Source: an uncultured archaeon
GTDB lineage: Archaea > Aenigmatarchaeota > Aenigmatarchaeia > CG10238-14 > SCSR01
Assembly: GCA_964512235.1 (NCBI GenBank)
Contig: CAZEGD010000001.1
Coordinates: forward strand, 42,874 to 106,873
Direction: 5' to 3'
Length of the DNA: 64,000 nt
Shown: one piece after another, positions 32,232 to 46,690 of the stretch
How positions within the stretch are numbered: position 1 is the stretch's first letter
How the letters are laid out: every line of letters starts with the position of its first letter
Translations under genes and position numbers: made by a program
The notes under the pieces: model-generated
Databases searched by the model: none
What the model saw: the letters and a program-made list of their open reading frames with translations, nothing else
Told to the model about the DNA's origin: nothing

Positions 32232-34523
32232 ATGCCTTACAAATTTATAAAATGGTTCGACGAGCTGACAAAGAATGACGTACCTATAGTCGGTGGCAAG
32301 ACTGCGAACCTTGGAGAGATGATAAACAAGACTAAAGTGCCAGTACCGGCAGGGTTTGCAATCACTGCTAAAGCTTACCGCTTCCATATTCTATGCAACA
32401 ACCTTCAGACAAAGATGGAGAAAGCCCTCGAAGGATTGGATACGCATGACGTAAAAAATCTGGCTGAACGCGGACAGAAAATACGTAGACTCATAAGTGA
32501 TGCAGAATTGCCATTGCAATTGAAGAAAGAGATTATCAAAGCGTATGAAGAATTGGCGGAAAAACTGAAGGCCAAGAAACTCTATGTTGCAGTGCGTAGC
32601 TCGGCTACGGCAGAAGACCTGCCGGGTGCGAGCTTTGCTGGACAGCAGGAGACCTATCTGAATGTCACAGGCAAGGAATTGTTGCTTAAGCGCGTGAAGG
32701 ACTGCTTTGCCTCGCTATTTACAAATCGGGCAATAAGCTACCGTGAAGACAAAAGTTTTGACCATTTCAAAGTCGCTCTCAGCGTGGCTGTGCAGAAGAT
32801 GGTGAACAGCAAGTGCGCGGGCGTTGCATTCACAATCGACCCTGATAGCGGACATGAAAATTTTATCATGCTCAATGGCAGTTGGGGACTGGGTGAATAT
32901 ACAGTTCAAGGAAAGGTCAACCCGGACACATTTCTCGTTTTCAAACCGACTCTTGCAGTGATTGAGAAGAACCTGGGAGATAAAAAGCTGAAACTTGTGA
33001 GGGGAGACAAGGAGAATAAAGAAGAAAAAGTACCGGACTCAGATAGGAAAAGATTCGTGCTGAGCGATTATGAGATAAAAGGATTGGCAGAATACTGCAT
33101 GGCTATTGAAGACCACTATAAAATGCCCATGGACATAGAATGGGGCAAGGATGATGATGGCAAGATGTACATACTGCAGGCGAGGCCGGAGACTGTGCAT
33201 GCGATAAAGAAGAATATAATCGAAGTCTATGAACTGACAAGCCGTGGTAGTGTCTTGGTAAGGGGAGGAGCTGTCGGCCGCAAGATTGGTCAAGGTGTTG
33301 TAAACGTCATAGAGGATGCAGGCGATATTAGCAAATTCAAACCGAAACAAGTACTTGTGACTGACATGACCGATCCCGACTGGGAACCGATAATGAAGGT
33401 TGCTTCGGCAATTGTCACCAACCGCGGCGGTCGCACCTGCCATGCGGCAATCGTCTCACGGGAGCTTGGTATACCTTGCATAATCGGCACGCAGAATGCC
33501 ACTAAAGTCTTGAAAAACGGCCAAGAGGTAACAGTCGTATGCGCAGAAGGCGAAGGCAAGGTCTATGAAGGCTTGCTAAAATTCAAGAGAAGGGAGGTAG
33601 ACATAAAAGAGGTGCCAAAGACTAAGACTAAGATTTATGTAAACCTAGGCATACCCGACCAGGCTCTGAGTGTGGGGAGACTGCCCGTGGACGGTGTTGG
33701 TCTGGCCCGGCTGGAGTTCATAATCAATTCCTACATCGGCGTCCATCCGCTCCACATGATAAAAAACCGCAAGTCTCAGTTGTTCATAGACAAACTTGCT
33801 ACAGGTATAGCAAAGATCGCTGCCTCTTTCTATCCGCGGCCGGTGATTGTGAGGCTGAGCGATTTCAAGAGCAACGAATATGCCAATCTGGAAGGCGGTG
33901 AGAAGTACGAACCTCAAGAGAGCAATCCAATGCTTGGATGGAGGGGTGCGAGCCGCTACTACGATCCTAAATTTCTGCCCGCATTCAAACTAGAGTGCAA
34001 GGCATTAAAGAAAGTGAGGGATGAATACGGGTTGACAAACGTGAAAGCAATGGTGCCTTTTTGCAGGACACCTGAAGAAGGCAGGCGAGTGATTTCAATA
34101 ATGGAAGATGAGGGATTGAAGCGAGGCAAGAATGGCTTTGAAGTTTGGTGCATGGCCGAGATACCGAGCAATGTCATACTTGCGGACGAGTTCAGTAGAG
34201 TCTTTGACGGCTTCAGCATAGGCAGCAACGACCTTACACAGCTTACGCTTGGCTTAGACCGCGACAGTGAACAAGTTGCACACTTGTTTGACGAGCGTGA
34301 TGAAGCTGTAAAACAGATGGTGAGTCAGCTCATAAAGACTGCGCACAAGCATGGCAAACCTGTGAGCATTTGCGGGCAAGGCCCTAGCGATTTCCCAGAA
34401 TTTGCAGAATTTCTGGTGCAAGAAGGTATAGACAGCATTAGCCTGAATCCGGATGTTGCATTGCGGACTAAAATAGATGTAATTGCACCTGCTGAGAAAA
34501 AATTGGAAAAACGACCAATATAA
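32232..34523 (+). CDS. ppsA: Phosphoenolpyruvate synthase (pyruvate, water dikinase)
   Basis: GGKTANLGEM. Phosphohistidine segment TNRGGRTCHAAIVSRELGIPCIIG. C-terminal PEP-utilising domain GFSIGSNDLTQL. Confidence 0.93.
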   Translation: MPYKFIKWFDELTKNDVPIVGGKTANLGEMINKTKVPVPAGFAITAKAYRFHILCNNLQTKMEKALEGLDTHDVKNLAERGQKIRRLISDAELPLQLKKEIIKAYEELAEKLKAKKLYVAVRSSATAEDLPGASFAGQQETYLNVTGKELLLKRVKDCFASLFTNRAISYREDKSFDHFKVALSVAVQKMVNSKCAGVAFTIDPDSGHENFIMLNGSWGLGEYTVQGKVNPDTFLVFKPTLAVIEKNLGDKKLKLVRGDKENKEEKVPDSDRKRFVLSDYEIKGLAEYCMAIEDHYKMPMDIEWGKDDDGKMYILQARPETVHAIKKNIIEVYELTSRGSVLVRGGAVGRKIGQGVVNVIEDAGDISKFKPKQVLVTDMTDPDWEPIMKVASAIVTNRGGRTCHAAIVSRELGIPCIIGTQNATKVLKNGQEVTVVCAEGEGKVYEGLLKFKRREVDIKEVPKTKTKIYVNLGIPDQALSVGRLPVDGVGLARLEFIINSYIGVHPLHMIKNRKSQLFIDKLATGIAKIAASFYPRPVIVRLSDFKSNEYANLEGGEKYEPQESNPMLGWRGASRYYDPKFLPAFKLECKALKKVRDEYGLTNVKAMVPFCRTPEEGRRVISIMEDEGLKRGKNGFEVWCMAEIPSNVILADEFSRVFDGFSIGSNDLTQLTLGLDRDSEQVAHLFDERDEAVKQMVSQLIKTAHKHGKPVSICGQGPSDFPEFAEFLVQEGIDSISLNPDVALRTKIDVIAPAEKKLEKRPI

Positions 34524-34576
34524 AAATGTTAATTGCTATTCCTTTCATATGAGAAGAATCCTATCTCGATGGTGTA

Positions 34577-35008
34577 GTGATTCAATTGCCTGAAAGACGA
34601 GAAGTCCTTTGTAAGAAATTAGAATTAATTAAAGGTATTGTTGGAGAAGTCAATGGAACCCCTAGTCTAGAGTTAGGATTAGCAGACGGTGCACTTTCCA
34701 TAACCGAATACGTTGATGGGAGGAGACCTCTAAAGAGGAGATATGAAGTCAATGCGAGAGGGGATTATAAGATTGCGTACATACTCTTATCGATGCTCTA
34801 TGAGGTACTGAAAAATAAAGAATTTGATAGATGGGATATTAAAGATTCGATAGAAATTGGGCTTTTAAGAGAGTCTAATATCTATACAGATGGCGGTCAT
34901 ATAAATCAAGTTATTAGATCTTCTATTGAACAGTTTAAGATTTTTGAAGAGGATACAAAAATCAGAGCAACTTATGACCTCATGAATAAAGTATTGGTTA
35001 AATTTTAA
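34577..35008 (+). CDS. Hypothetical protein (143 aa)
   Basis: ORF only. Confidence 0.35.
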   Translation: MIQLPERREVLCKKLELIKGIVGEVNGTPSLELGLADGALSITEYVDGRRPLKRRYEVNARGDYKIAYILLSMLYEVLKNKEFDRWDIKDSIEIGLLRESNIYTDGGHINQVIRSSIEQFKIFEEDTKIRATYDLMNKVLVKF

Positions 35009-35056
35009 CCGTATTCCTGGAATCTAAAACTTATTTTCTAAAACCAAGTTATATTT

Positions 35057-35827
35057 ATGAAATTCAATAAGTTTTCCACTTTCATCTTTGACTTGGACGG
35101 TACAATGTGGAGATGGAATAAGCTAATACCAGGCGCTAAAGAGACTATTGAACAACTGCAGAAGCAAAAGAAGCAAGTCCTATTCATAACAAACAGTACT
35201 ATAGTCTCCCGGTACAAACTCGTAAAGAAGCTTTGGAAATTTGGCATTGACATAAGACATAATCAGCTTCTGAACTCGGGGCTTGTCGCTGCAAAATATT
35301 TTAAAAAGAGGGTGAAGAGAGGAGAGTGTGTCTTTGCAGTTGGTAAAGGATTGAGGGATGACTTAAAGGCTGGAAAAGTGAGGACTACAAGCAGAGTAAC
35401 GGCCGATTATGTAGTCGTTGGGCATGATTTGAAGTTTGATTTTATGAAACTTTTTACGGCAATAGAAGCCCTGCGCCGTGGTGCTAAGCTCTATACGACT
35501 GCGCGAGGCAGATATTTTGTCGCAGGCAATGACTTGTGGCCCGGTACTGGAGTGATGACAAAGGCTATAGAATACGGGAGTGGTAAAGAGGCAAAGCTTT
35601 TGGGCAAACCATCGATTTTTATGACTAGAGCTATTAAGTCCATGAATAAATCCAGACCAAGTAGGACTGTGCTCATCGGCGATAGTATTGGGACGGATAT
35701 AGCAGTCGGTAAAGAGTTGGGCTATTACACCGTCCTCGTGAAGACGGGTGTGAACAGGAGTACAAAAGTAAAGAGAAGGATGAGGCCGGATTTGGTGTTG
35801 AAGTCTGTTGCGGATATAAAAACGTAA
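35057..35827 (+). CDS. HAD-superfamily hydrolase, subfamily IIA (NagD-like)
   Basis: FIFDLDGTMW, FITNST and LIGDSIGTDI. Confidence 0.8.
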   Translation: MKFNKFSTFIFDLDGTMWRWNKLIPGAKETIEQLQKQKKQVLFITNSTIVSRYKLVKKLWKFGIDIRHNQLLNSGLVAAKYFKKRVKRGECVFAVGKGLRDDLKAGKVRTTSRVTADYVVVGHDLKFDFMKLFTAIEALRRGAKLYTTARGRYFVAGNDLWPGTGVMTKAIEYGSGKEAKLLGKPSIFMTRAIKSMNKSRPSRTVLIGDSIGTDIAVGKELGYYTVLVKTGVNRSTKVKRRMRPDLVLKSVADIKT

Positions 35828-35836
35828 ACTCGGTTT

Positions 35837-36511
35837 TTACAATTTAAGACTATCCATGATCATGCACAAAGAATCTGGGTCATGTTTTCTGAATGGTCTT
35901 TTCATTCCCCACCTTTCAGAGTATATTTTCCTAAAACTTCTGATATTATTTGGATTAAAATCTCTATAGTCCCTAGTTGCGAGGTTGAGACCAAGCACGT
36001 AAGCCGCTACTGCAACCGAGAAGTCACCATTGGAATTGAAAAGTCTGGAAATATTATCGTATTTTTTGCGAAAACTGTTGGCATCAAAGTCTATGTAGTA
36101 TAAATATTCCATTATATCGCCCATCCAATTTTTAGGGATATCGTACGTTGACCTAAAATTCCTCAAATCCCAAAGTTCAAGTTCAACTTGTCTAGTCATG
36201 GCCATATATAGCCCCCGCTTGGATAGACTGCCATCTTCAATTGCGTTAACTACGCGTATGCATTTTCTAAGTTCTCGCTCGCTCAACTTTCTTAGTATAT
36301 GTTTATCATCGCTTTCTCTCAACGGATTCAGTTTTTCCGAATATTTCCTTAAGGAATTTACATTCCTTTTATTTCTGGACAGTATCTCTGGAAAAAGCAC
36401 GCATGCATCGACAACTGTAATTTCTCTCGAGAATATCGGCCTAATGTCCCCTGTAGTAAAAATCTGGAGCCCGTGAAGATCATTGTACAGCTCAATTGAG
36501 TTCATTATCAC
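35837..36511 (-). CDS. Hypothetical protein (224 aa)
   Basis: ORF only. Confidence 0.4.
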   Translation of the reverse strand: MIMNSIELYNDLHGLQIFTTGDIRPIFSREITVVDACVLFPEILSRNKRNVNSLRKYSEKLNPLRESDDKHILRKLSERELRKCIRVVNAIEDGSLSKRGLYMAMTRQVELELWDLRNFRSTYDIPKNWMGDIMEYLYYIDFDANSFRKKYDNISRLFNSNGDFSVAVAAYVLGLNLATRDYRDFNPNNIRSFRKIYSERWGMKRPFRKHDPDSLCMIMDSLKL

Positions 36512-36598
36512 ACAACCCGAATAGATAGACTATCAATAAACAAAAAGGACTGTTAGATTTAAATACACTTATTCCAAACTTCTAAATTATCTATTAGG

Positions 36599-38254
36599 GT
36601 GATTGATTTCAAGGACGAAAAGGTAATTATCACATCTGGGTTGCCGTATGCAAACGGTGAGCTGCATCTAGGACATGTAACGTCTACATATTTACCGGCA
36701 GACATATTTGCACGCTACTGCAGGCTGAAAGGTAGAAGAGTAGTCTTTGTATGTGCGACCGACGATTTTGGAACACCGATTCTTATAAAAGCCGAGCAGG
36801 AAAAGAAGGAATTGAAGGACTTTGTTGCATATTGGAATAGGCATGATAGGGAAGATTTTGAAGCTCTGGGCATATCCTTTGATATTTTCGACAAGACTAG
36901 CTCGAAGGAGAATATAGAATTCGTACAGAGTTTTTTCCTTACGCTGAAAAAGAAAGGTTTCATATTCAAGCAGACAGTGCAACTACCTTACTGTGAAAAA
37001 TGCGGCAAATTCCTGCCTGATAGATATGTAAAAGGTACTTGCCCGTTCTGTGGGGCAGAAGAGCAGTACAGTGACTGGTGCGAGAAGTGTGGGAGAGTGT
37101 TCCAATCGGGGCAAATCAAAGACCCGCACTGTGCAATCTGCGGAACTACACCAGTGACAAAGATCAGCGATCATTACTTCTTTAAACTGTCTGCCTTTGC
37201 TAAGCAGCTTAATGAATGGTTCAACAAAAACAGCGATTTGCAGAGTGAAGTGAAAAATTATGTGCTTAGATGGATAGAGGATGGGTTGCTTGACTGGGAT
37301 ATTACACGGGATATGCATTGGGGTGTGCCGATTCCCTTGGAAGATGCGAAAGGCAAAGTGTTCTATGGCTGGTTTGACAACCAGTTGTGCTACATATCCA
37401 CAGCACTCAAGCATCTGGCAAGCAAGAAGATTGATGGTGAGAATTTCTGGAATTCCGCTCGCATCTACCACTTCATAGGCAAGGACATAGTATACCACCA
37501 CTATTTATTTTTGCCGGCTATGAGGATTGGTGAAGGCAGGTTCAAGCTGCCTGAATTCATACCCGTACGCGGTCATTTGTTGCTGCAGGGTAAGAAGTTT
37601 TCAAAGAGTAGGAACTGGTATGTAGGGTTGCATGACTTCTTGGATAGCTTTCCGGCAGATTATTTACGATATTATCTCTCAACCATTACAACTTACAGCC
37701 AGGCAGACATCAACTTCGATTGGAAAGATCTCCAAGCGAGGATAAACAACGAGCTAGTTGCGACTATAGGCAACTTTATTCATAGAGCCCTGACATTCAT
37801 TGACTCGAAATTCGACGGCAAAGTACCTGAGCCGGATGGATTTGATGATGTGGATAAGGAGTTTGAAGAAAGGATTAAGACTATTGCTACGGAAGTAAGT
37901 GAATTTATAGAAAATAATGAACTACATAGAGCATTGAAGAAGATAATAGAGTTTGCAGGCGCCTGCAACCAGTACTTCCAGAAAAAGGAGCCCTGGAAGG
38001 GCAATGCAAACAATTGTCTCTATCTCAGTATAAACGCAGTCCGTACTCTTGCCATCATACTAGAGCCGTACTTGCCTTTTGCAGCAGAAGATTTGTGGAA
38101 TCAGTTGAATCTCAAGGGATCTGTACACAAGCAAAAATGGGAATCTGCGAAAGAATTAAAGATTAAAACCGGTCACAAAATCAATAAGCCAAAAGTTCTT
38201 TTCAAGAAGATTGAAAACGAGGAGATAGAAAGAGAGATTAAGAAACTAAGGTAA
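36599..38254 (+). CDS. metG: Methionyl-tRNA synthetase
   Basis: LPYANGELHLGH. Zn knuckles CEKCGKF...CPFCG...CEKCG...CAICG. KFSKSRNW (KMSKS-type). GTG start. Confidence 0.92.
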   Translation: MIDFKDEKVIITSGLPYANGELHLGHVTSTYLPADIFARYCRLKGRRVVFVCATDDFGTPILIKAEQEKKELKDFVAYWNRHDREDFEALGISFDIFDKTSSKENIEFVQSFFLTLKKKGFIFKQTVQLPYCEKCGKFLPDRYVKGTCPFCGAEEQYSDWCEKCGRVFQSGQIKDPHCAICGTTPVTKISDHYFFKLSAFAKQLNEWFNKNSDLQSEVKNYVLRWIEDGLLDWDITRDMHWGVPIPLEDAKGKVFYGWFDNQLCYISTALKHLASKKIDGENFWNSARIYHFIGKDIVYHHYLFLPAMRIGEGRFKLPEFIPVRGHLLLQGKKFSKSRNWYVGLHDFLDSFPADYLRYYLSTITTYSQADINFDWKDLQARINNELVATIGNFIHRALTFIDSKFDGKVPEPDGFDDVDKEFEERIKTIATEVSEFIENNELHRALKKIIEFAGACNQYFQKKEPWKGNANNCLYLSINAVRTLAIILEPYLPFAAEDLWNQLNLKGSVHKQKWESAKELKIKTGHKINKPKVLFKKIENEEIEREIKKLR

Positions 38255-38293
38255 ATTAGATAAGTCCAGATTTGCAATTAATTATTGAGAAGT

Positions 38294-38773
38294 ATGAAAA
38301 AAGTAAAGGACTTTATGAACAAGAAAGTCGTTTCCTTCAAGCCTGAGGATTCTATATTCGATGTTGCCCAACTATTTTCAAGACTTAACATCTCCGGCGC
38401 GCCCGTGGTAAGCAGGGGTAAAGTGCTTGGTGTCGTAAGCGAAACAGACATTGTCAAATTTATGAGTATGAAATTGTCACAATCGCTCAATTCAAAGTCT
38501 CTGCCTCTACAGTCCCTAAGCATGATTTGTCTAAACTTAATCAAGACAGGGAAGAGTCATTTAGCCATAAAGGAAGATTTGGAGAGAATATCTAGGATAA
38601 AAGTCAAAAACGTTATGACAAAGGAGGCTGTGAGTGTGGGCCCGGATACGAACATATTCGATGCTGCTGCTATGATGGAAAGGCATGACATCAATAGGTT
38701 GCCTGTCGTGAGCAGGGGTAAACTCGTGGGTATAATCGCACGTGCGGATTTGATAAAGGCGCTTGTAGATTAG
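38294..38773 (+). CDS. CBS-domain pair protein
   Basis: Two CBS-like units: VKDFMNKKVVSFKPEDSIFDVAQLFSRLNISGAPVV and VKNVMTKEAVSVGPDTNIFDAAAMMERHDINRLPVV. Confidence 0.85.
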   Translation: MKKVKDFMNKKVVSFKPEDSIFDVAQLFSRLNISGAPVVSRGKVLGVVSETDIVKFMSMKLSQSLNSKSLPLQSLSMICLNLIKTGKSHLAIKEDLERISRIKVKNVMTKEAVSVGPDTNIFDAAAMMERHDINRLPVVSRGKLVGIIARADLIKALVD

Positions 38774-38821
38774 GACCTATGCAACTCAACGAACTTCTCT
38801 ATCGATCTATCGTATGTACGC

Positions 38822-39316
38822 TCATCTTTTCAAGACTTTCATAAATCTTTCAGGATGCGATGGCGTTATCAAATAATGCCTGCCGCCTTTTGCAGTTATT
38901 ATCAATCCGTCCCTTAAGTTTGTTATTATTGTCCTTGTCCATCCTAGACTTGGAATGTAAAATCTGCCAGAATAGAAGCTCGCACCGACTCTGAAATAGA
39001 ATGGGGTTAGAGTTCTTTCAACTTTTTTAATGTCTTTCAGCTTGAGTCTTATGATTGCAAATGGCGACCAGGACGTCAATATCCCGTCTTTCACGACATA
39101 CTTTGTTCTATAAAGACTTAGAGTCGTGGCGATTAGCAGTATTGTAGTGAAAGACATGACAGCTATGGTTATAACTTGTGATGGCATTGAGGAAGAATAA
39201 ATAAGAGTAAAGAGAGAAATCCCAAGAAATACGGAGATGACAAGAATTGATAATGTTATATACATGCCACCTATCCATTTACTGATGTATGGTTTGTTGA
39301 CAATTTTCTTTGGCAT
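38822..39316 (-). CDS. Membrane protein with bacterial-PH (DUF304-like) domain
   Basis: Two N-terminal TM segments, then YRTKYVVKDGILTSWSPFAIIRLKLKDIKKVE. Confidence 0.45.
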   Translation of the reverse strand: MPKKIVNKPYISKWIGGMYITLSILVISVFLGISLFTLIYSSSMPSQVITIAVMSFTTILLIATTLSLYRTKYVVKDGILTSWSPFAIIRLKLKDIKKVERTLTPFYFRVGASFYSGRFYIPSLGWTRTIITNLRDGLIITAKGGRHYLITPSHPERFMKVLKR

Positions 39317-39464
39317 AATTACTATATTCTAATAGGATTTTAAAAACGCCGAGGGTGGACGCTGTACAACTTGTACAGAGCCTAAAGTTCGGTGTAAAAT
39401 CAAAAAGAATATTAAATACAGAAAGATAATAAACTTTTTAAATTCAAAATCCACCTTCTTAAAT

Positions 39465-40589
39465 ATGGTGTTCACAACATTAGAAGATGGGAGGATAAAA
39501 TACCAAGGGAATAAGTTATTTCCACCTATCGATGATATAAAAAGTAGAAATTTAGCCGTAGAACATATAGAAAATAGAATACATAGTATAAAAACCAATC
39601 AAATGTGGGAAAAAATAACTCTTATAAATGACATTATCTTCAAATCTACAGTTGACTTTTTCTCTTCTATAGGAGCAAAATTCATTCCTTTACCACTTAC
39701 AACAAAAATGATATCTTCTCCGGGAGCTGTTTATGGAAAGAAAAAAATCAATTATACAACTGATACAAAACCAATAAAGTTAAAATGGTTCAATTTATCT
39801 GAACCTGTCTTTCTGTCAGAATCTTCACAAATATACCTAGAACTTGTTCTTCTACAAAATAATATCGACCATGTTTTTTCTATTTATAACTCTTTTAGGA
39901 AAGAAGAAGCAGATACTACTCACCTATCGGAGTTTCATCATATAGAATACGAAGGACACGTCACACAGGAAAAAAACTTGGAAACGATAGAAAGTCTTGT
40001 GAAAACTATTTTAAAAAATATTCTAAAGAAAAAATATCTTTTAGAGTTTTTCCTAGAAGAAGGGGATATAAGAAATTTGGAAATCCTTGCAAAGGATCAC
40101 TTTATCCAAATAAAATTTAAAGACGTTCTAAGAATGTTATACGAGGAGACAAAAGATGAAAAATACAAGAAATTTACAACTAAGTATTTTGGATTTTGGG
40201 AAGAAGTTAAGATCACAGAAATATTGGGTAATAAAATAGTAGTTATCAAAGAGTTTCCATTATTAGAAACGGCGTTCTACCATGCACCAAAAGTTGTTGA
40301 TGGAGTACAAGTTGCAAACAATGCTGATATAATATGGCCTAGTTATAAGGAATTTGTAGGAAGTGGACAACGTGTAGGAACACTAAAAGAACTGATGAAA
40401 AAAGCAAAATTTTTCACTCTACCAAAAAAAGATTATGAACCATATTTACAATCCAGAAGATACGATGACTATAAAATAAGTTCTGGATTTGGAATGGGCT
40501 GGGAAAGATTATTACAAGGTTTACTTAAAATGCCTACCATAATATCAGTTTGTCACTTTCCAAGAATCCACGATAAAATGATACCCTAA
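39465..40589 (+). CDS. AsnRS/AspRS-like class IIb catalytic core without anticodon-binding domain (AsnA-like)
   Basis: Motif 1 region GAKFIPLPLTT. LSESSQIYLEL. Motif 2 VFSIYNSFRKEEADTTHLSEFHHIEYE. EFVGSGQRVGTLKEL...YEPYLQSRRYDDYKISSGFGMGWERLL parallels the AsnRS pattern GEIIGGSQRE...YWWYLDLRRYG..PHSGFGLGFERL. No OB-fold N-domain. Confidence 0.7.
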   Translation: MVFTTLEDGRIKYQGNKLFPPIDDIKSRNLAVEHIENRIHSIKTNQMWEKITLINDIIFKSTVDFFSSIGAKFIPLPLTTKMISSPGAVYGKKKINYTTDTKPIKLKWFNLSEPVFLSESSQIYLELVLLQNNIDHVFSIYNSFRKEEADTTHLSEFHHIEYEGHVTQEKNLETIESLVKTILKNILKKKYLLEFFLEEGDIRNLEILAKDHFIQIKFKDVLRMLYEETKDEKYKKFTTKYFGFWEEVKITEILGNKIVVIKEFPLLETAFYHAPKVVDGVQVANNADIIWPSYKEFVGSGQRVGTLKELMKKAKFFTLPKKDYEPYLQSRRYDDYKISSGFGMGWERLLQGLLKMPTIISVCHFPRIHDKMIP

Positions 40590-40643
40590 TTAAGTTATTA
40601 TTTTTAACTATCAATTAATTATAATTCAGAGGATGATTATACT

Positions 40644-41684
40644 ATGAAATTGATTAAACCACCTTCATTGCAAAAAGGGGATAGTATAGCTATAGTAGCT
40701 CCCTCTTCTGGTTTAGCTGCTTTATTTCCTCATCGTTTGGAAAGAGCTGTAAAGTTTTTGGAAAAAATTGGTTATAAAATAAAGGTTTTTCCGACAGCTC
40801 GCTCTATAAAGAAATGGAGTTCGGGGAGTCCTAAGGAAAGGGCATGCGATATAAACAATGCATTTGAAGACAATGAGGTTAAAGCTATAATATGTTCCAT
40901 AGGAGGTATAGTCGCGAATCAGACACTCAAATACATTAATTTTGATATTATAAGGAAGAAGCCAAAAATATTTTGCGGGTACTCGGATATCTCAGTTCTA
41001 CATTATGCGTTTCATACAGTCGCCGGTTTAGTCACGTTCTACGGTCCTTGTGCAATGACCCAATTTGGTGAATATCCTGAACCATTAAAATATACAGTAA
41101 ACCACTTTGAAATGGCTGTAGGGAATAACAAACCTATCGGTAGAATAAACCCCTCTGAAAAATGGACAGATGAAGTGTTGGATTGGGCTAACAAGTTAGA
41201 TATTGAAAGACCAAGAGGGCTAAAGACTAACTCAGGATTTCAATGGTTACGTGAGGGTAAGGTTTCTGGCCGTGTAATGGGGGGGTGTATATCTTCTATT
41301 GTACATCTCCGTGGAACCAAATTCTGGCCGAATCAAAAAGACCGAATATTTTTTATAGAAATTTCAGAGGGTCAAGAGTCTTCTAGTGGTGAACCACTCT
41401 CATACGTGGATTCATATCTGACAAATCTTGAAATTTCAGGTGTCTTTCAAGATATAAATGGTCTTATAGTAGGTAGACCCTTCAGGTACACCAATGAAGA
41501 TACAGAGGAATTAAAAAGGATAATTTTAGAACAAACAAAAGAGTACGATTTCCCAATTTTATTTGGTGCGGACATTGGTCATACGGATCCAATGATAACA
41601 ATACCACTAGGAACTAAAGTAGAGTTAGATTCGAACTCTAATAGCTTTGTTTTTCTAGAATCTGGAACATCAAACAACCTTTGA
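40644..41684 (+). CDS. S66-family LD-carboxypeptidase / MccF-like serine peptidase
   Basis: GDSIAIVAPSS. Nucleophile elbow FCGYSDISVLH. C-terminal FGADIGHTDPMITIPLG (Ser-His-Glu family layout). Confidence 0.8.
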   Translation: MKLIKPPSLQKGDSIAIVAPSSGLAALFPHRLERAVKFLEKIGYKIKVFPTARSIKKWSSGSPKERACDINNAFEDNEVKAIICSIGGIVANQTLKYINFDIIRKKPKIFCGYSDISVLHYAFHTVAGLVTFYGPCAMTQFGEYPEPLKYTVNHFEMAVGNNKPIGRINPSEKWTDEVLDWANKLDIERPRGLKTNSGFQWLREGKVSGRVMGGCISSIVHLRGTKFWPNQKDRIFFIEISEGQESSSGEPLSYVDSYLTNLEISGVFQDINGLIVGRPFRYTNEDTEELKRIILEQTKEYDFPILFGADIGHTDPMITIPLGTKVELDSNSNSFVFLESGTSNNL

Positions 41685-41733
41685 CTCATGGGAATAGAAA
41701 GACATTAATCCTTTTGGGTATATGACTTAACTT

Positions 41734-42864
41734 ATGAGAGTTTCGAGTCTAATTGGACACAAAATAAAAACGAGGAAGAAGTTTGATGATCTTGCAGAGC
41801 TTTTGACCAGCAGTTTTTTAGTAGAAACCTCTTTTTTCGACAACGATGGCTACAAAGGCCTTATAAAATTATCCATTGAAAAGTCTGTAGAGAATAATCT
41901 AGAAGCGTTGTTGAAAGAGCTAATGCAGAGAAGTGGAATACAACCAATTGAGTTGCCTACACTTCAACCTTATAATATTTTTGAGACTACTGATAGGATA
42001 GAAAAGTTTGGTAGAGAATTTGTGTCCACTACAGACGATAGGGTAGTTTTTCCCACATCAGAAGAACCCATAATCAACTATCTGGGCCGATTTGCAAACT
42101 TGTCATACAGAGAATTACCGATGTTAGTTTACCAATTTAAAAACTTCTTCAGGGCAACAACTCCGAAAGCCCTTATACGTCTACAAGAGTTTAAAGTACT
42201 TGATATATACAGCTTGAATGAAACTGAGGACTCCCTGAGAGAAACAATAAAAACAATAATAGAACCGATGTTTTTCCAACTGTGGGAAAGGCTAAACCTC
42301 AAAACAATACAACTGAAGAAAGATGAAAACTACATAGACATAAAAGTAAAGACAGCAGAAGGAAATGATACGATACCTAAAACTGGCGAAAGATGTCTAG
42401 GAATTGGCGTAATAATGAACCTTGGCAACAACTATTCAAAAAAATTTGGATTGGGGGTTGCCGATTCTTCTAATAACCTAGTGTATCCGTATCTTGGATC
42501 CTACGCTATAGGGATAGAACGGTTGATTTATGCTATGGTAGACCAAGGAAGAACAAAATCAAAAGGGGTCAACACTATTAAATGGCCTGAAGGAATCGAA
42601 CCTGTAACTTATTATGTTATAAAAATAGGAGAAAGCAATTATGGTGAAAAAATATATAAAGAACTTATTTCTAGAAATAAAAGAGTTCTATTGGATGATA
42701 GTAAAGACACTTTAGGAACAAAATTCGCACGGGCCTATGCCATAGGAGCACCATACATCATTAGTGCTGGCCCAAAAGAAGAGTCTAGAAAGATTGTAGG
42801 TATTGAAGAAAGTTACACAGGTGAGAGATGGGAAATAGAGTTTGATAAACTATTGTGCATGTGA
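41734..42864 (+). CDS. Divergent ProRS-like class IIa paralogue (motif 2 degenerate)
   Basis: LPTLQP, FPTSEEPI, SYRELPMLVYQFKNFFRATTPKALIRLQEFKVLDIYSL (compare YQF..KYRDE..R.GLFRTKEFLMKDAYSF in the next gene), GSYAIGIERL, and a HGTP-type anticodon-binding domain YYVIKIGES...LLDDSKDTLGTKFARAYAIGAPYIISAGPKE. Confidence 0.6.
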   Translation: MRVSSLIGHKIKTRKKFDDLAELLTSSFLVETSFFDNDGYKGLIKLSIEKSVENNLEALLKELMQRSGIQPIELPTLQPYNIFETTDRIEKFGREFVSTTDDRVVFPTSEEPIINYLGRFANLSYRELPMLVYQFKNFFRATTPKALIRLQEFKVLDIYSLNETEDSLRETIKTIIEPMFFQLWERLNLKTIQLKKDENYIDIKVKTAEGNDTIPKTGERCLGIGVIMNLGNNYSKKFGLGVADSSNNLVYPYLGSYAIGIERLIYAMVDQGRTKSKGVNTIKWPEGIEPVTYYVIKIGESNYGEKIYKELISRNKRVLLDDSKDTLGTKFARAYAIGAPYIISAGPKEESRKIVGIEESYTGERWEIEFDKLLCM

Positions 42865-42869
42865 ATACT

Positions 42870-44132
42870 ATGAGAAGGTCACAACTTTTTACACCAACAG
42901 GCAAAGCCGATGAGAGAGAAATGCTTAGTCGAAGTCTGGAATTAAGTTTGAGGGGTGGCTTTGTTCGCCAGACAGGTTCTGGCCTTTATAGTTATACACC
43001 CACAGGTGTCAGGGTTCTTTATAATATATCATCTCTTGTCAGAAAGGAAATGAATAATATTAATGCACAGGAAGTACTTCTTCCATCCTTACAGCCAGCA
43101 GAGTTGTGGAAGGAGAGCGGTAGATGGGAAGTATACAAAGGTAGTATATTTACTATCCAAGATAGCCAAAACAAGAAGTATTGTCTAGCCCCAACATGCG
43201 AAGAAGCCATGGTAGATCTTGTGAGGGGTAATGTCAGATCATATAAGAACTTGCCACTAACCTTATATCAGTTCAGCCAGAAGTATAGGGATGAAAAGGT
43301 AAGACAGGGTCTCTTCAGAACAAAAGAATTCTTAATGAAAGATGCTTATAGCTTCCATTTTAGTGAGGATGACCTCGATAAGACGTATCAGAAGATGAGG
43401 CAGGCATATACTAACATCTTTGAAGAACTAGAACTGGATTTCTTCTTATCTTCAGCCGAGACTGGTGAGATGGGAGGGAAAAGGTCTGAAGAACTTATTG
43501 CCTTGACGGATGTTGGAACAGACAAGTTCGTTGTTTGTTCACAGAAGGAATGTCATTTTGGAAGCCCCATAGATAGTGGTATAAAAGAGTGTTCTATCTG
43601 TGGTAGAGACTTGCAACTGAAAACAGGTATTGAATTAGCTCACTTGTTCAAGTTGGGAGACCGATACAGTAAACAAATGGATCTAACCTTCGCTGACAGA
43701 GATGGTTCGATAAGATATATGGAAATGGGTTGTTATGGGATAGGGATTAGCAGACTAATCCCAACAATAATAGAACAGAACAATGACGAAAAAGGTATAA
43801 TATGGCCAGAAAATGTGGCTCCATTTAAAGAAGTTATTATTCCTACAAGCCAAAAGAAGTCAAATCTCGCTAGACTCTCTAATCAGTTATACTATGAGCT
43901 GAACGAAAAAAGATTAGATCCGTTGTTGGACGATAGAGATGTTTCAGCTGGCACAAAATTTGCTGAATCTGATTTGATGGGGATTCCAAGAAAAATAATT
44001 ATAGGTCCTAAATCCTTGGCCAAAGGTAAGATAGAGGTGGAGCATCGTAGAGGCGGTAAAGATTTTTTAGAAATTGAAAATTTCGTTGCAGAATATATAA
44101 AAAAGTATTATTTAGGACATACAACTGCCTAA
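42870..44132 (+). CDS. proS: Prolyl-tRNA synthetase, bacterial-type architecture without INS editing domain
   Basis: MRRSQLFTPTGK...GSGLYSYTPTGVRVL...LLPSLQPAELWKESGRWEVY...LAPTCEEAM...SYKNLPLTLYQFSQKYRDEKVRQGLFRTKEFLMKDAYSF...MGCYGIGISRL...DDRDVSAGTKFAESDLMGIPRKIIIGPK. The track start 42855 is a GTG 5 codons upstream. Confidence 0.75.
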   Translation: MRRSQLFTPTGKADEREMLSRSLELSLRGGFVRQTGSGLYSYTPTGVRVLYNISSLVRKEMNNINAQEVLLPSLQPAELWKESGRWEVYKGSIFTIQDSQNKKYCLAPTCEEAMVDLVRGNVRSYKNLPLTLYQFSQKYRDEKVRQGLFRTKEFLMKDAYSFHFSEDDLDKTYQKMRQAYTNIFEELELDFFLSSAETGEMGGKRSEELIALTDVGTDKFVVCSQKECHFGSPIDSGIKECSICGRDLQLKTGIELAHLFKLGDRYSKQMDLTFADRDGSIRYMEMGCYGIGISRLIPTIIEQNNDEKGIIWPENVAPFKEVIIPTSQKKSNLARLSNQLYYELNEKRLDPLLDDRDVSAGTKFAESDLMGIPRKIIIGPKSLAKGKIEVEHRRGGKDFLEIENFVAEYIKKYYLGHTTA

Positions 44133-44188
44133 GATGTTGATAAAGTAATAATAAATTTATTGTAAACTTACAAACTCATATTATAGAA

Positions 44189-45013
44189 ATGATAAATATG
44201 TCAAGAGAAATCACACCAGCTAGTATAAAGGACATGTCCTATATAGATTTTATGGCTTTTCTCAATGAGACCAACAAACCGCCAGGAGGAAAGAAATCAC
44301 TAATAGATGTAGCTCAACTATGCTTCTTGAATAAGGACAAGAAAGTTCTTCATGTAGGTTGTAGTACTGGATATTCGACCTTTGAACTTAACCGATTAAC
44401 AGGTTGTAAAATAGTAGGGATAGACATCAGTTCCAACATGATTAAAAGAGCCAATGAGAAAAGAGAGAAAGATATGAATAGAACCAATGTAACATTTCGA
44501 GTTGCCGATGCCACAAAATTTCCTTTCGAGGACAATACATTCGATGTTGTGTTTTCGGCGGGTGCTACAGCTTTCTTTGAGGACATACAAAAAGGAGTAG
44601 CTGAATGCAAACGTGTTGTTAAACCATGGGGCTTCATGGTCGATGTAAACTTCTATTATAAGAAAGACCCACCGCAGAGTTTGATAGATGAATTGAATAA
44701 GACTATGGATATCCACATAAAAAAACGGAGTAAGGAAGATTGGATAAGAATATACGAAGATGCCGACCTGGATGTTTATTATATTAAAGATGGAAAAACA
44801 AAAACTGTTACGAAAGAGCAAATAGAAGAATACGCAGAAAAAACCGCTAGGAGAGTGACCTCTGGTTCAGAAATCATAAAAACGATAAAGGAAAAACTGA
44901 TACCCATAATGGAGCTTTTCAATAGAAACAATGAGTACTTAGCATACTCGATATTCATCTTTCGCAAGCACCCTGACGAAGAGCCTAAAGATATCTACTT
45001 GTTTGAACCTTAA
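44189..45013 (+). CDS. Class I SAM-dependent methyltransferase
   Basis: Motif I VLHVGCSTGYST. GIDISSNMIKRANEK. FDVVFSAGA. Confidence 0.7.
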   Translation: MINMSREITPASIKDMSYIDFMAFLNETNKPPGGKKSLIDVAQLCFLNKDKKVLHVGCSTGYSTFELNRLTGCKIVGIDISSNMIKRANEKREKDMNRTNVTFRVADATKFPFEDNTFDVVFSAGATAFFEDIQKGVAECKRVVKPWGFMVDVNFYYKKDPPQSLIDELNKTMDIHIKKRSKEDWIRIYEDADLDVYYIKDGKTKTVTKEQIEEYAEKTARRVTSGSEIIKTIKEKLIPIMELFNRNNEYLAYSIFIFRKHPDEEPKDIYLFEP

Positions 45014-45132
45014 CCAAATATTTTTCAAGAATACAATTAGTTCAACGCCTACTCAACATTCTATTTCCAATTTTCAAAAAATTGAGCTAGATGCTGATTT
45101 GACAGCAAAAACTAAAGAATTGAAAAATTCTA

Positions 45133-45215
45133 CGCCGAGGGTGGGATTTGAACCCACATGGGCAAAGCCCGCTGGTTTTCAAGACCAGTGCACCACCTGG
45201 TTATGCGACCTCGGC
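45133..45215 (-). tRNA. tRNA-Ser (anticodon UGA), type II
   Basis: Acceptor GCCGAGG/CCTCGGC, discriminator G. Anticodon stem CTGGT/ACCAG, loop CTTGAAA. Long variable arm CGGGCTTTGCCCAT. T arm GTGGG-TTCAAAT-CCCAC. Confidence 0.9.
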
Positions 45216-45274
45216 ATACCTAAAGAATAATTCATAGAAATAAGATATAAAAGTACTCTCCCAATCCAATGAGC

Positions 45275-45577
45275 TTAGACATCTTTCACTGAGTTTACGA
45301 CTTCCAGCTTGCCTGACCTGGGTATGTTAAGCTGAATCTGGTCCCTGAACACAGTAATGTATGCCCCGGAGACTGTAACCATATCCCCTATCGCTATGGA
45401 CTTTATTTGATCTTCCCACAACGATAGCTTGATTTGGCCACTATCATCTTCTATTTCCGCATCAGCTACTTGCTTAGGGCCATATCGAGTGTTCACCTGT
45501 CTAGGCTCTGATATGTCTATCACTTTGCCTTCTACAGTTACGTTACTCATGCCCTGTTTAACTTCATTTATCTTCAT
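45275..45577 (-). CDS. Single OB-fold nucleic-acid-binding protein (SSB/RPA-like)
   Basis: VTVEGKVIDISEPRQVNTRYGPKQVADAEIEDDSGQIKLSLWEDQ...GDMVTVSGAYITVFRDQIQLNI has an OB-fold pattern. Confidence 0.6.
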   Translation of the reverse strand: MKINEVKQGMSNVTVEGKVIDISEPRQVNTRYGPKQVADAEIEDDSGQIKLSLWEDQIKSIAIGDMVTVSGAYITVFRDQIQLNIPRSGKLEVVNSVKDV

Positions 45578-45709
45578 GACTACAACCTAATAACACTTTT
45601 TTAACACACCAGTTTAAATATTTAACTTCTGTGTTGAAATGATTATGAGCAACTCCAATTTAACGGACTTAGACCCGCATACCTCTGAGTAGATATTATA
45701 GATGCATAT

Positions 45710-46690
45710 CTATCTAGACTTGACTTTCCATTTTGGATAAGTTTCTCTTTTCATAAAGACTCTGTCCGTTCTCACTGCTATGCCGCGTTTTGATTTAAAC
45801 ATCTCTTTGCTAGTCATTCTTGCTATGCCAATTGCGACAAGCTCGCCCTTCAGAGTATACACAGCTACAAGCTCGCCCTTTACTATGCCATCTTGGATTC
45901 TCGTGAGACCGGAAGCATAGACTGGCGAACCGTTGCATATGGCACCGACAGCTGAATCCTTCACGAGCACGCGCTTCACATGTAAAATAGCGTGATCTGT
46001 GGGGATTAGAATCTTTTTCAGTTTCTTCTCTTTGCCTTCTTGCCAGAATTCGTATGCATCCTTCACTTCCAGCAAACTATGGCTCTCCTCTTCCGTGAAT
46101 GGTCCCACTCTTGTCCTTCTGAGCTCAGCCATGTGCGCACCTATGCCCAAGCTCTGGCCGATGTCATGGCATAGCTTGCGTATGTACGTGCCTGCCTGGC
46201 ATCCTACTTTGAAGAGTACGTCTTTGCCATCTATTTCAAGAATATCGAAAAAGTAGATTTCGCGCACCCTGAGCCTCCTTGCAACGGCAGACTTCACAGG
46301 AGGCATCTGCTTAATCTTGCCTATGAATCTTTTCACTGCATCTTCTATGGCTTTCTTGGGCAGCTCCTTGTGCAAGTGCATTATGCCTACATATTCTTTA
46401 TCCAAGTTGGAGAGTGCAGGCATAGCCTTCGTAGCATTGTCCATAGCAATGGGTAGTACGCCTGTCACTGCAGGGTCGAGAGTGCCTGCATGCCCGCAAT
46501 TCTTCAGGGCAAAAATATCACACACCCATCTAGTCACTTGATGGCTAGTCGGTCCACTCTGCTTGTCTAGGATGATGACAGAATTGCTTATGTGTTCTTC
46601 AATAGTCCGCTGCTCCAACGGTTTGCCATAAGCCTCGTCAGTCTCTTCCTCAGATTTAATCAGCCATTTCGCTTTCTTTAAATTTGGCAT
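45710..46690 (-). CDS. cbf5: H/ACA RNP pseudouridine synthase Cbf5
   Basis: GPTSHQV, GHAGTLDPAVTGVLPI (TruB catalytic Asp motif), and a C-terminal PUA-like segment. Confidence 0.9.
   Translation of the reverse strand: MPNLKKAKWLIKSEEETDEAYGKPLEQRTIEEHISNSVIILDKQSGPTSHQVTRWVCDIFALKNCGHAGTLDPAVTGVLPIAMDNATKAMPALSNLDKEYVGIMHLHKELPKKAIEDAVKRFIGKIKQMPPVKSAVARRLRVREIYFFDILEIDGKDVLFKVGCQAGTYIRKLCHDIGQSLGIGAHMAELRRTRVGPFTEEESHSLLEVKDAYEFWQEGKEKKLKKILIPTDHAILHVKRVLVKDSAVGAICNGSPVYASGLTRIQDGIVKGELVAVYTLKGELVAIGIARMTSKEMFKSKRGIAVRTDRVFMKRETYPKWKVKSR

Follow-up and report, generated by a model that had tools for sequence, protein, structure and literature searches.

A five-gene operon in a stretch of DNA from an uncultured archaeon of the Aenigmatarchaeota is a homologue of the agrocin 84 (agn) core gene set, which suggests that it serves the synthesis of an aminoacyl-nucleotide and not of asparagine. 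The stretch, hereafter the window, comprises 64,000 nucleotides of contig CAZEGD010000001.1 (positions 42,874 to 106,873) and is part of a 677-kb genome with 41% GC that is 89% complete. The first gene of the operon (39465-40589, + strand, ATG start) encodes P0001, our name for a 374-aa AgnA-like protein that consists of an asparaginyl-tRNA synthetase (AsnRS)-type class IIb catalytic core without the oligonucleotide/oligosaccharide-binding (OB) fold. Judging from sequence comparisons, P0001 is a descendant of AsnRS that has lost the anticodon-binding domain and keeps the full site for ATP and the aminoacyl-adenylate. A role for P0001 as the AgnA-type enzyme of an aminoacyl-nucleotide-producing cassette seems to us fairly probable. 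All of the chemical steps are inferred, as are substrate, target and biological use, and we place much less confidence in any single step of the chemistry than in this general reading.

The AgnA kind of protein, the agn clusters and actinobacterial agn-like clusters with a spare methionyl-tRNA synthetase (MetRS) are already published. A literature search found no paper linking AgnA or agn-type clusters with archaea or DPANN, and no prior description of an OB-less AsnRS of the AgnA-like kind in archaea. The family to which P0001 belongs is set apart from the AgnA clade as its sister group and has an N-terminal segment not shared with it, and its cassette here is a minimal one with a spare prolyl-tRNA synthetase (ProRS).

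P0001 is an AsnRS-type core without an anticodon-binding domain

An earlier note on this DNA, made from the sequence alone, described P0001 as an AsnRS-type class IIb core lacking the anticodon-binding OB fold, and profile-profile alignment, NCBIfam, Pfam and structure matches all agree with this description. The motifs quoted in that note are all located in the open reading frame (ORF) at 39465-40589. Motif 2, VFSIYNSFRKEEADTTHLSEFHHIEYE, spans residues 137-163 (window 39873-39953) and motif 3, SSGFGMGWERLL, spans residues 339-350 (window 40479-40514), while GSGQR corresponds to residues 299-303 and YEPYLQSRRY to residues 324-333. The Pfam domain tRNA-synt_2 covers residues 35-367 with 98 bits. 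The top NCBIfam model is asnS (NF003037), which P0001 matches at 147.5 bits without reaching the cut-off of 414; only model positions 106-449, the part that follows the OB fold, align, with residues 25-372. TIGR00457 scores 132.5 bits, likewise below its cut-off (342.6).

Profile-profile alignment by hhalign pairs residues 9-374 of P0001 with residues 87-430 of canonical AsnRS (probability 100%, E 3.9e-42). We also aligned 59 homologues to assess conservation of the N-terminus and of individual residues, and based an AlphaFold2 model of P0001 on the same 59 sequences. The model has a mean predicted local distance difference test (pLDDT) score of 92.1 and a predicted template modelling score of 0.92, and the loop at residues 86-94 is its sole stretch with pLDDT below 50. 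The top Foldseek matches of the model are 9sh8 and 1x54, structures of AsnRS with asparaginyl-adenylate analogues, at a template modelling score of 0.79.

In the hhalign comparison, AsnRS residues 1-86 are unpaired and the first ~44 residues of P0001 are aligned at zero confidence; therefore, P0001 has no OB fold. A Pfam scan of the ORF likewise gave no match to PF01336. The first 44 residues (window 39465-39596, + strand) form a segment specific to the family, as recognized from conservation in the homologues, the structural model and hhalign. In the model this segment comprises a beta-hairpin (strands at residues 3-5 and 11-13) and two short helices, and it occupies the place of the end of the AsnRS OB fold and the hinge, being much too short for an OB fold itself. 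Every one of the 59 homologues has G15 and N16, and at least 90% of them have Y13, F19 and R38. The earlier note had found no counterpart for the N-terminal ~60 residues; a confident counterpart is missing for residues 1 to ~44 only, whereas residues ~45-68 form an ordinary motif-1 helix.

Neither of the two flaws that could have produced an apparent lack of the OB domain, a cryptic OB fold or a mis-called start, was found. Upstream of the ATG, 43 more codons are open and include no ATG, GTG or TTG, and the N-terminus is conserved in homologues, so the start is sound and an upstream extension is ruled out. All of the 120 matches listed are 374-401 aa long, and 115 of them fall between 375 and 381 aa. 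In a MAFFT alignment, G15, F19 and D24 were set on the G-x3-F-x4-D pattern of the AsnRS OB region. However, hhalign has zero confidence there and leaves 86 AsnRS residues partnerless, which rules out a cryptic OB fold and makes the resemblance a vestige at most.

Downstream of the operon, a 100-aa OB-fold protein is encoded at 45275-45577 (- strand), with matches to Pfam tRNA_anti-codon (30.7 bits) and to an SSB/RPA-like NCBIfam model (93 bits). We considered it as an OB domain acting in trans and rejected it, as it is SSB/RPA-like and is not kept near P0001 homologues; it is not a detached anticodon-binding domain.

P0001 groups with AgnA and not with archaeal asparagine synthetases

AgnA is a truncated AsnRS without the anticodon-binding domain (PMC4392301). 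BLASTP aligns P0001 with AgnA of plasmid pAgK84 at 25% identity over 344 aa (E 8e-26). A tblastn search with P0001 against 72,556 plasmids returned eight records, of which six are AgnA-bearing Agrobacterium or Rhizobium plasmids, including pAgK84; the other two contain one Xenorhabdus gene and one Streptomyces gene. In a maximum-likelihood tree of 58 sequences, the P0001 family and the AgnA clade are each monophyletic (support 100/98 and 100/99, respectively), and together they form one clade (100/99) nested within AsnRS.

By analogy, the earlier note had likened P0001 to AsnA and to the archaeal AsnRS-related asparagine synthetases (AS-AR), and on this point the evidence is contrary. In the same tree, the AS-AR proteins encoded by DPANN relatives stand close to AspRS as a clade of their own (100/99); P0001 does not cluster tightly with AsnA and instead groups with the AgnA clade. 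P0001 falls far short of the AS-AR models NF005052 (34.9 bits, cut-off 368) and NF005054 (43.6 bits, cut-off 309). In a search of the PDB, the solved Pyrococcus AS-AR structures match at 27 bits and AsnRS at 81 bits. There is no match to Pfam AsnA in P0001. The note had also left room for aspartate as the substrate; the position of the lysine that binds the beta-carboxylate of aspartate in AspRS and AS-AR is L125 in P0001 and Leu in AsnRS too, which speaks against an Asp specificity of the AspRS and AS-AR kind.

The best partial match of P0001 among the NCBIfam models named 'asparagine synthetase A' is to NF005055 (103 bits). NF005055 and NF005053 are the models best matched by AgnA itself (199 and 191 bits), and these two of the four models with that name are the best matches of AgnA and AgnA-clade proteins generally. 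The naming of both groups in databases is inconsistent with their placement here: RefSeq lists AgnA of pAgK84 as 'asparagine synthetase A', and public records list members of the P0001 family as 'asparagine--tRNA ligase'. Both names are probably wrong.

Active site

We compared the active site column by column between the P0001 family, the AgnA clade, AsnRS, AspRS and AS-AR. AsnRS, the AgnA clade and the P0001 family have the adenylate-forming residues R145, E147, H153, F157, E161, E163, D288, E296, R303 and R348 in common. Six of these (R145, E147, H153, F157, E161 and E163) lie in the stretch of motif 2 with its loop (39873-39953, + strand) and are invariant in the family as well as common to AsnRS; motif 3 (40479-40514, + strand), identified by residue conservation, reads GFGMGWER and contributes R348. 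The class II motif and Mg/ATP-binding residues R145, E147, H153, F157, D288, E296 and R348 are all invariant in the P0001 family, and the asparagine-contacting positions E161 and R303 are retained in P0001.

Other positions differ from AsnRS, several of them by derived changes common to the P0001 family and the AgnA clade. The column comparison places a conserved LPLTT(K/R)MISSPGAVYGK segment (39690-39740, + strand) at the position of the class IIb 'flipping loop', where nearly all of the AsnRS and AspRS sequences in the comparison have Glu-Gly but the P0001 family and the AgnA clade both have Ser-Pro (residues 85-86). Position 85 is Ser in 100% of the P0001 family and 91% of the AgnA clade, and Glu in 100% of AsnRS and AspRS. 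We take this Glu, as in class IIb structures, to contact the alpha-amino group of the substrate. Its replacement suggests that substrate binding may differ from that of plain AsnRS. The histidine of the GxPH loop (H339) is Thr in the P0001 family, the AgnA clade and also AS-AR; K269 is replaced by Val in about two thirds of the P0001 family and about two thirds of the AgnA clade; and D241 is lost in both alike. Residues of the motif-2 loop that are conserved in AsnRS are also replaced in P0001. Since the core has no anticodon-binding domain while the residues that make the adenylate are intact, it appears very unlikely that P0001 charges tRNA.

The five-gene operon

The P0001 gene opens a run of five same-strand genes at 39465-45013, with gaps of 49-56 bp and one pair overlapping by 10 bp. 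The GC content of the operon is 32-39%, compared to 40-48% in the flanks. In the upstream intergenic region (39317-39464, + strand), ~30-40 bp separate the ATG from an A/T-rich, TATA-like box, TTTTTAAATT, which from its composition and position is likely an archaeal promoter. The gene upstream of the operon is on the opposite strand; directly adjacent and divergent (38822-39316, - strand), it encodes a membrane protein of 164 aa that includes a bPH_5 (bacterial PH) domain and is not kept at other loci.

The second gene (40644-41684, + strand) encodes a 346-aa serine peptidase with both Pfam Peptidase_S66 domains, a homologue of AgnC5 (38% identity, E 9e-78). Among structures in the PDB, it matches the MccF-like protein of Bacillus anthracis at 222 bits and Escherichia coli MccF at 153 bits, compared to 39-67 bits for LdcA carboxypeptidases, and we therefore assign it to the MccF and not the LdcA type. 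G112, S114, D115 and H313 are conserved among 42 homologues. The last gene (44189-45013, + strand) encodes a 274-aa S-adenosylmethionine (SAM)-dependent methyltransferase (Pfam Methyltransf_11) that resembles AgnB1 (30% identity over 256 aa, E 7e-49).

Between these lie two ProRS-like genes. The product of one (41734-42864, + strand) is a divergent bacterial-type ProRS paralogue of 376 aa. Pfam recognizes in it a class IIa core (tRNA-synt_2b, 59.6 bits) and an anticodon-binding domain (HGTP_anticodon, 45.7 bits); its score on the NCBIfam ProRS model, 151.6 bits, is far below the cut-off of 558. It is a candidate for the amino-acid-activating ligase of the pathway. The other (42855-44132, + strand), whose start overlaps the preceding gene by 10 bp, encodes a spare, near-canonical bacterial-type ProRS of 425 aa without the editing insertion (TIGR00409 proS_fam_II, 473 bits, above the cut-off of 306.7), a candidate self-resistance enzyme. 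A housekeeping archaeal-type ProRS is encoded on contig C4 (locus L094, 1183-2652; TIGR00408, 517 bits, cut-off 437), and both ProRS-like genes of the operon are extra.

No ThiF/MccB-type Pfam match was found among the five operon proteins. We also looked for an MccA-like precursor peptide and rejected it, since Asn is the last residue in only 6 of 160 short ORFs upstream, which is no enrichment. As no MccA-like peptide gene precedes the P0001 gene, a free amino acid is the likelier substrate. A MetRS gene 1.2 kb upstream (36599-38254) was considered as a second spare aminoacyl-tRNA synthetase (aaRS) and rejected; because it is the only MetRS gene in the genome, it is a housekeeping gene.

Conserved neighbourhoods and distribution of the P0001 family

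We examined 75 loci encoding AgnA-like proteins of the P0001 family in species-representative genomes, calling and clustering their ORFs, and counted neighbours within 6 kb at the 43 loci with at least 3 kb of upstream and at least 5 kb of downstream sequence. An AgnB1-like methyltransferase is present at 35 of the 43, most often directly after the AgnA-like gene, and an MccF-like S66 peptidase at 32. Counting any S66, HIT or S51 hydrolase brings the number to 38, while a ProRS-like paralogue occurs at 19. MccF, HIT (MccH) and S51 enzymes have been described as immunity hydrolases against microcin-C-type peptidyl-nucleotides (PMC8323819; PMC9239234).

Elsewhere the recurrent aaRS partners include full-length AsnRS, AspRS or LysRS-like genes, MetRS, LeuRS (in Natrinema) and a HisRS-like protein; at one locus two tandem AsnRS genes stand beside the AgnA-like gene. 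Recurrent enzyme partners include a pyridoxal phosphate (PLP)-dependent Orn/Arg-type decarboxylase, a radical SAM enzyme, an APH-type kinase and an Amidohydro_2 enzyme, and further partners are an AsnC-type regulator and, in haloarchaea, an ABC exporter. The ProRS-like partner is long-branched and varied, and its tree places the copies next to a genuine ProRS apart from those next to MetRS. A constant core with an exchangeable specificity module would fit this tree, which is based on a small sample.

Several cassettes depart from the arrangement in the window. At a Woesearchaeota locus (L031, 1-7831) and at L019, three full-length class IIb aaRS genes precede the AgnA-like gene, encoding an AspRS-like protein of 369 aa and AsnRS proteins of 430 and 424 aa, and a methyltransferase and an Amidohydro_2 enzyme are encoded downstream; the predicted target of such a variant would be AsnRS or AspRS. 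A second cassette type, found at L023, L036, L050, L054, L056 and L019, lacks the S66 peptidase and contains instead an Amidohydro_2 protein of ~328 aa, as well as a HIT-family protein of ~150 aa that is encoded on the opposite strand in all but L036. Haloarchaeal copies, 50-53% identical to P0001, occur in Natrinema (L014, L015, L018 and L022) and Haloarcula (L068), where an ABC exporter pair and a methyltransferase adjoin. The Natrinema cassette, which adjoins a 948-aa LeuRS, also includes an S66 peptidase and a protein of 659 aa that matches nothing in Pfam.

The close homologues of P0001 belong to Woesearchaeota, Pacearchaeota and Nanoarchaeota, and the host range of the cassette spans DPANN archaea, haloarchaea and a few bacteria. 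Most homologues are 47-60% identical to P0001, including those of Natrinema, Haloarcula, Paenibacillus, Actinomadura and Microcoleus (47-53%), and the most distant loci are 37-44% identical. Among 61 genomes from within the same family or order, only two have a copy of the P0001 family. The sole other copy, 60% identical, is in the relative G034 (contig C18, 6983-8077; locus L105). Most of the relatives have two canonical class IIb matches of ~430-450 aa, taken to be AspRS and AsnRS. The distribution of the P0001 family is thus accessory, not housekeeping, and the low-GC operon is a horizontally mobile cassette of which the AgnA-like enzyme is the constant core.

The genome of the window (G000) contains one canonical class IIb aaRS, a non-discriminating (ND)-type aspartate--tRNA(Asn) ligase (507 bits, cut-off 353), as well as GatB; the ligase gene and two genes with a GatB_N domain are at 8250-9569 on contig C6, 4693-5526 on C5 and 98898-99788 on C3. 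A canonical AsnRS was not found in this 89%-complete genome. ARAGORN, run with and without introns, found no tRNA-Asn gene, which is uninformative at this completeness. Based on these genes, Asn-tRNA is probably made by the indirect route. With the ND-type AspRS and GatB present and AsnRS undetected, free asparagine would therefore have no route into protein.

Comparison with known systems

The annotated order of the agn cluster is agnA, a SAM methyltransferase gene (agnB1), agnB2, and agnC1 through agnC5, the last encoding an MccF-like protein. AgnB2 is an agrocin-resistant LeuRS, AgnC1 has been reported to be remotely ProRS-like, and actinobacterial agn-like clusters carry extra MetRS genes (PMC8323819). 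The operon in the window shares with agn of pAgK84 (Rhizobium rhizogenes K84) an AsnRS core without the anticodon-binding domain, an AgnB1-type methyltransferase, an MccF-like peptidase and a spare aaRS. In terms of role, P0001 would correspond to AgnA, the methyltransferase to AgnB1, the S66 peptidase to AgnC5 and the spare ProRS to the resistant LeuRS, AgnB2. Unlike agn, however, the operon has five genes and not 17, has no genes for an exporter, for nucleoside or pentanamide tailoring or for an uptake moiety, and carries a ProRS instead of a LeuRS as the spare aaRS. Moreover, P0001 comes from a different family, marked by an N-terminal segment of 44 residues, and the host is a DPANN archaeon and not a rhizobial plasmid. 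The agn cluster was sequenced in 2006, and since then the formation of its N-P bond has been an open question and AgnA has never been assayed (PMC8323819).

Microcin C offers a second comparison. The S66 (MccF), HIT (MccH) and S51 families all surround members of the P0001 family, and the SAM-dependent enzyme, together with the PLP Orn/Arg-type decarboxylase of some loci, recalls MccD and the N-terminal domain of MccE. The predicted product would likewise be a non-hydrolysable aminoacyl-adenylate with an N-P bond derived from an asparagine amide. In contrast to microcin C, there is no MccB/ThiF match and no sign of an MccA-like precursor, and the adenylating enzyme has a class II aaRS fold. 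MccB uses two ATP to convert a C-terminal Asn into Asp-NH-P-adenosine (PMC6385645). Phosmidosine, a natural compound of Streptomyces, mimics prolyl-adenylate and has both an N-P bond and a methyl group: it is an N-prolyl phosphoramidate of 8-oxoadenosine whose phosphorus bears an O-methyl (PMC6429109, PMC11229370). A molecule of this kind would be the expected output of an AgnA-like enzyme, a ProRS-like ligase, a methyltransferase and a spare ProRS, but the resemblance to the system here is confined to the predicted product. Our literature search found no published gene cluster for phosmidosine.

Among housekeeping and biosynthetic relatives, AS-AR (Pyrococcus abyssi, PDB 1NNH and 3P8T; NF005052 and NF005054) is, like P0001, an OB-less class IIb core, and it is tRNA-independent. 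In DPANN relatives, AS-AR genes usually stand beside other full-length class IIb aaRS genes and not in a cassette with MccF and methyltransferase genes. Canonical AsnRS provides the best structural and sequence matches of P0001, which keeps its adenylate-forming residues and the E161 and R303 positions; P0001 differs in lacking the OB domain, in its replaced flipping-loop Glu, GxPH His and motif-2-loop residues, and in being accessory.

Proposed function and alternatives

Based on the composition of the operon, we propose that P0001 takes ATP and either asparagine or a closely related analogue as its substrates, with no tRNA involved, and that its adenylate chemistry would create the phosphoramidate N-P link in an N-acyl-phosphoramidate nucleotide, the role proposed for AgnA and one for which MccB is a chemical precedent. 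The divergent ProRS paralogue may supply proline as the amino-acid part, and the methyltransferase may decorate the product. The MccF-like peptidase and the spare ProRS would protect the producer, and the peptidase may also trim an intermediate or set free an AMP-amide one. The product would be a non-hydrolysable prolyl-adenylate mimic that inhibits ProRS; such a mimic is probably what the cassette makes. A bolder version, doubtful in our estimate, is that the trio of AgnA-like, MccF-type and AgnB1-type proteins constitutes a general, ribosome-independent route to adenosine 5'-phosphoramidates, with free asparagine as the sacrificial nitrogen donor, and thus a modular system for making aaRS inhibitors. 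Here the AgnA-like enzyme would perform MccB-like two-ATP chemistry on free asparagine to give Asp-NH-P-adenosine, the peptidase would free AMP-NH2, an exchangeable aaRS paralogue (ProRS-like in this case) would acylate the nitrogen, and the matching spare aaRS would confer immunity. The result could be a phosmidosine-like ProRS poison, deployed by ultra-small episymbiotic archaea against hosts or competitors.

A number of points weigh against the aminoacyl-nucleotide proposal. P0001 is only 25% identical to AgnA, and its family is sister to the AgnA clade and outside it. The role of AgnA in forming the phosphoramidate bond is itself only proposed, and the agrocin 84 pathway is stated to be unknown (PMC8323819). 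As no AgnA-type enzyme has been characterized biochemically, the analogy to AgnA transfers a hypothesis and not a fact. With the flipping-loop Glu replaced, the substrate of P0001 may be something other than plain asparagine. The 376-aa ProRS paralogue shows no BLASTP similarity to AgnC1, and hhalign gives the pair a probability of 0.3%. Among the ORFs at 34000-46000 there are no genes for an exporter, for nucleoside tailoring or for an uptake ('Trojan horse') moiety. The copy in G034 has one TAG and one TAA in frame and is a pseudogene or an assembly error. Finally, our literature search found no experimental precedent for toxin production by a 0.68-Mb DPANN genome.

The same genes could, alternatively, form an island for immunity only, which likewise counts against toxin production and which we regard as unlikely. 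In that case no toxin would be made, and survival of foreign aminoacyl-adenylate mimics would be the function: the peptidase would destroy them, the spare ProRS bypass them and the methyltransferase inactivate them, with the OB-less core as a decoy or detoxifier. MccF, HIT and S51 enzymes are documented in resistance and stand-alone MccF genes are common (PMC8323819; PMC9239234), carrying a second aaRS is a classic way to become resistant (PMC8323819), and the window has no exporter. However, invariant adenylate-forming residues are not expected in a passive decoy, the fit to the agn precedent is poor, the haloarchaeal copies adjoin an ABC exporter, and tailoring genes (PLP decarboxylase, radical SAM enzyme, kinase) occur elsewhere. 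Another improbable function is that of a tRNA-independent ligase with a non-toxin acceptor, whether a metabolite, a cofactor or a protein, with the peptidase and methyltransferase acting on the same product. Truncated class IIb paralogues with non-tRNA acceptors do exist: EpmA is a truncated LysRS that acts on EF-P, and EpmA/GenX models weakly match P0001 (30 bits). The altered amino-acid pocket and the unproven chemistry of the cassette also leave room for such a ligase. Its patchy horizontal spread is nevertheless ill-suited to modification of a translation factor, the neighbourhoods include no conserved candidate acceptor protein, and an aaRS-inhibiting nucleotide specifically explains the spare aaRS and the three classes of immunity hydrolases.

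Two housekeeping functions are less credible still. An AsnA/AS-AR-type synthetase, amidating beta-aspartyl-adenylate to free asparagine, would share the OB-less AsnRS-like core with Pyrococcus AS-AR and could account for the partial matches to 'asparagine synthetase A' models, but we judge it very unlikely. The two models concerned are those best matched by AgnA, the real AS-AR models and structures match P0001 poorly (35-44 and 27 bits, respectively) and AS-AR forms its own clade near AspRS. There is also no lysine for the Asp side chain, free asparagine would have no route into protein, the linkage to MccF, methyltransferase and spare aaRS genes would have no reason, and the accessory distribution contradicts such a role. 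That P0001 is the genuine AsnRS of the organism, working without an anticodon-binding domain and perhaps with an OB protein in trans, strikes us as extremely improbable. Such an enzyme would make good the missing canonical AsnRS, P0001 does keep the Asn-recognizing E161 and R303, and the 100-aa OB protein is encoded 4.7 kb downstream. Yet the family is present in two of 61 relatives, most of which carry two canonical class IIb matches, and the ND-type AspRS, scoring above its cut-off, is present together with GatB. In addition, the OB protein is SSB/RPA-like and not kept beside homologues, residues of the motif-2 loop and the histidine loop that are conserved in AsnRS are changed, and a tRNA-Asn gene was undetected.

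If our proposal of an aminoacyl-nucleotide cassette is correct, antibiotics that mimic aminoacyl-adenylates would be widespread in ultra-small archaea, beyond one Agrobacterium plasmid and the enterobacterial microcins, and a symbiont-type genome of 0.68 Mb would be investing in chemical warfare or host manipulation. The spare aaRS next to each AgnA-like gene (ProRS, MetRS, LeuRS, AsnRS or others) would then predict the target. The P0001 family is much better conserved than the AgnA clade, with most homologues across DPANN archaea, haloarchaea, Firmicutes and Actinobacteria at 47-60% identity, and its cassettes of only four or five genes would be a far simpler system in which to reconstitute the chemistry.

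Other OB-less class IIb proteins in related genomes

Several related DPANN genomes encode OB-less proteins of 302-331 aa, and those that were scored pass the AS-AR models (438 and 369 bits). A third OB-less AsnRS-like lineage, of 330-361 aa, occurs at five loci (L106-L110) in the relatives G021, G007, G006, G058 and G008. Two of these proteins were scored and fall below the cut-offs of both AsnRS models (214-239 bits) and AS-AR models (141-152 bits), and the lineage forms a clade of its own with 100/100 support.

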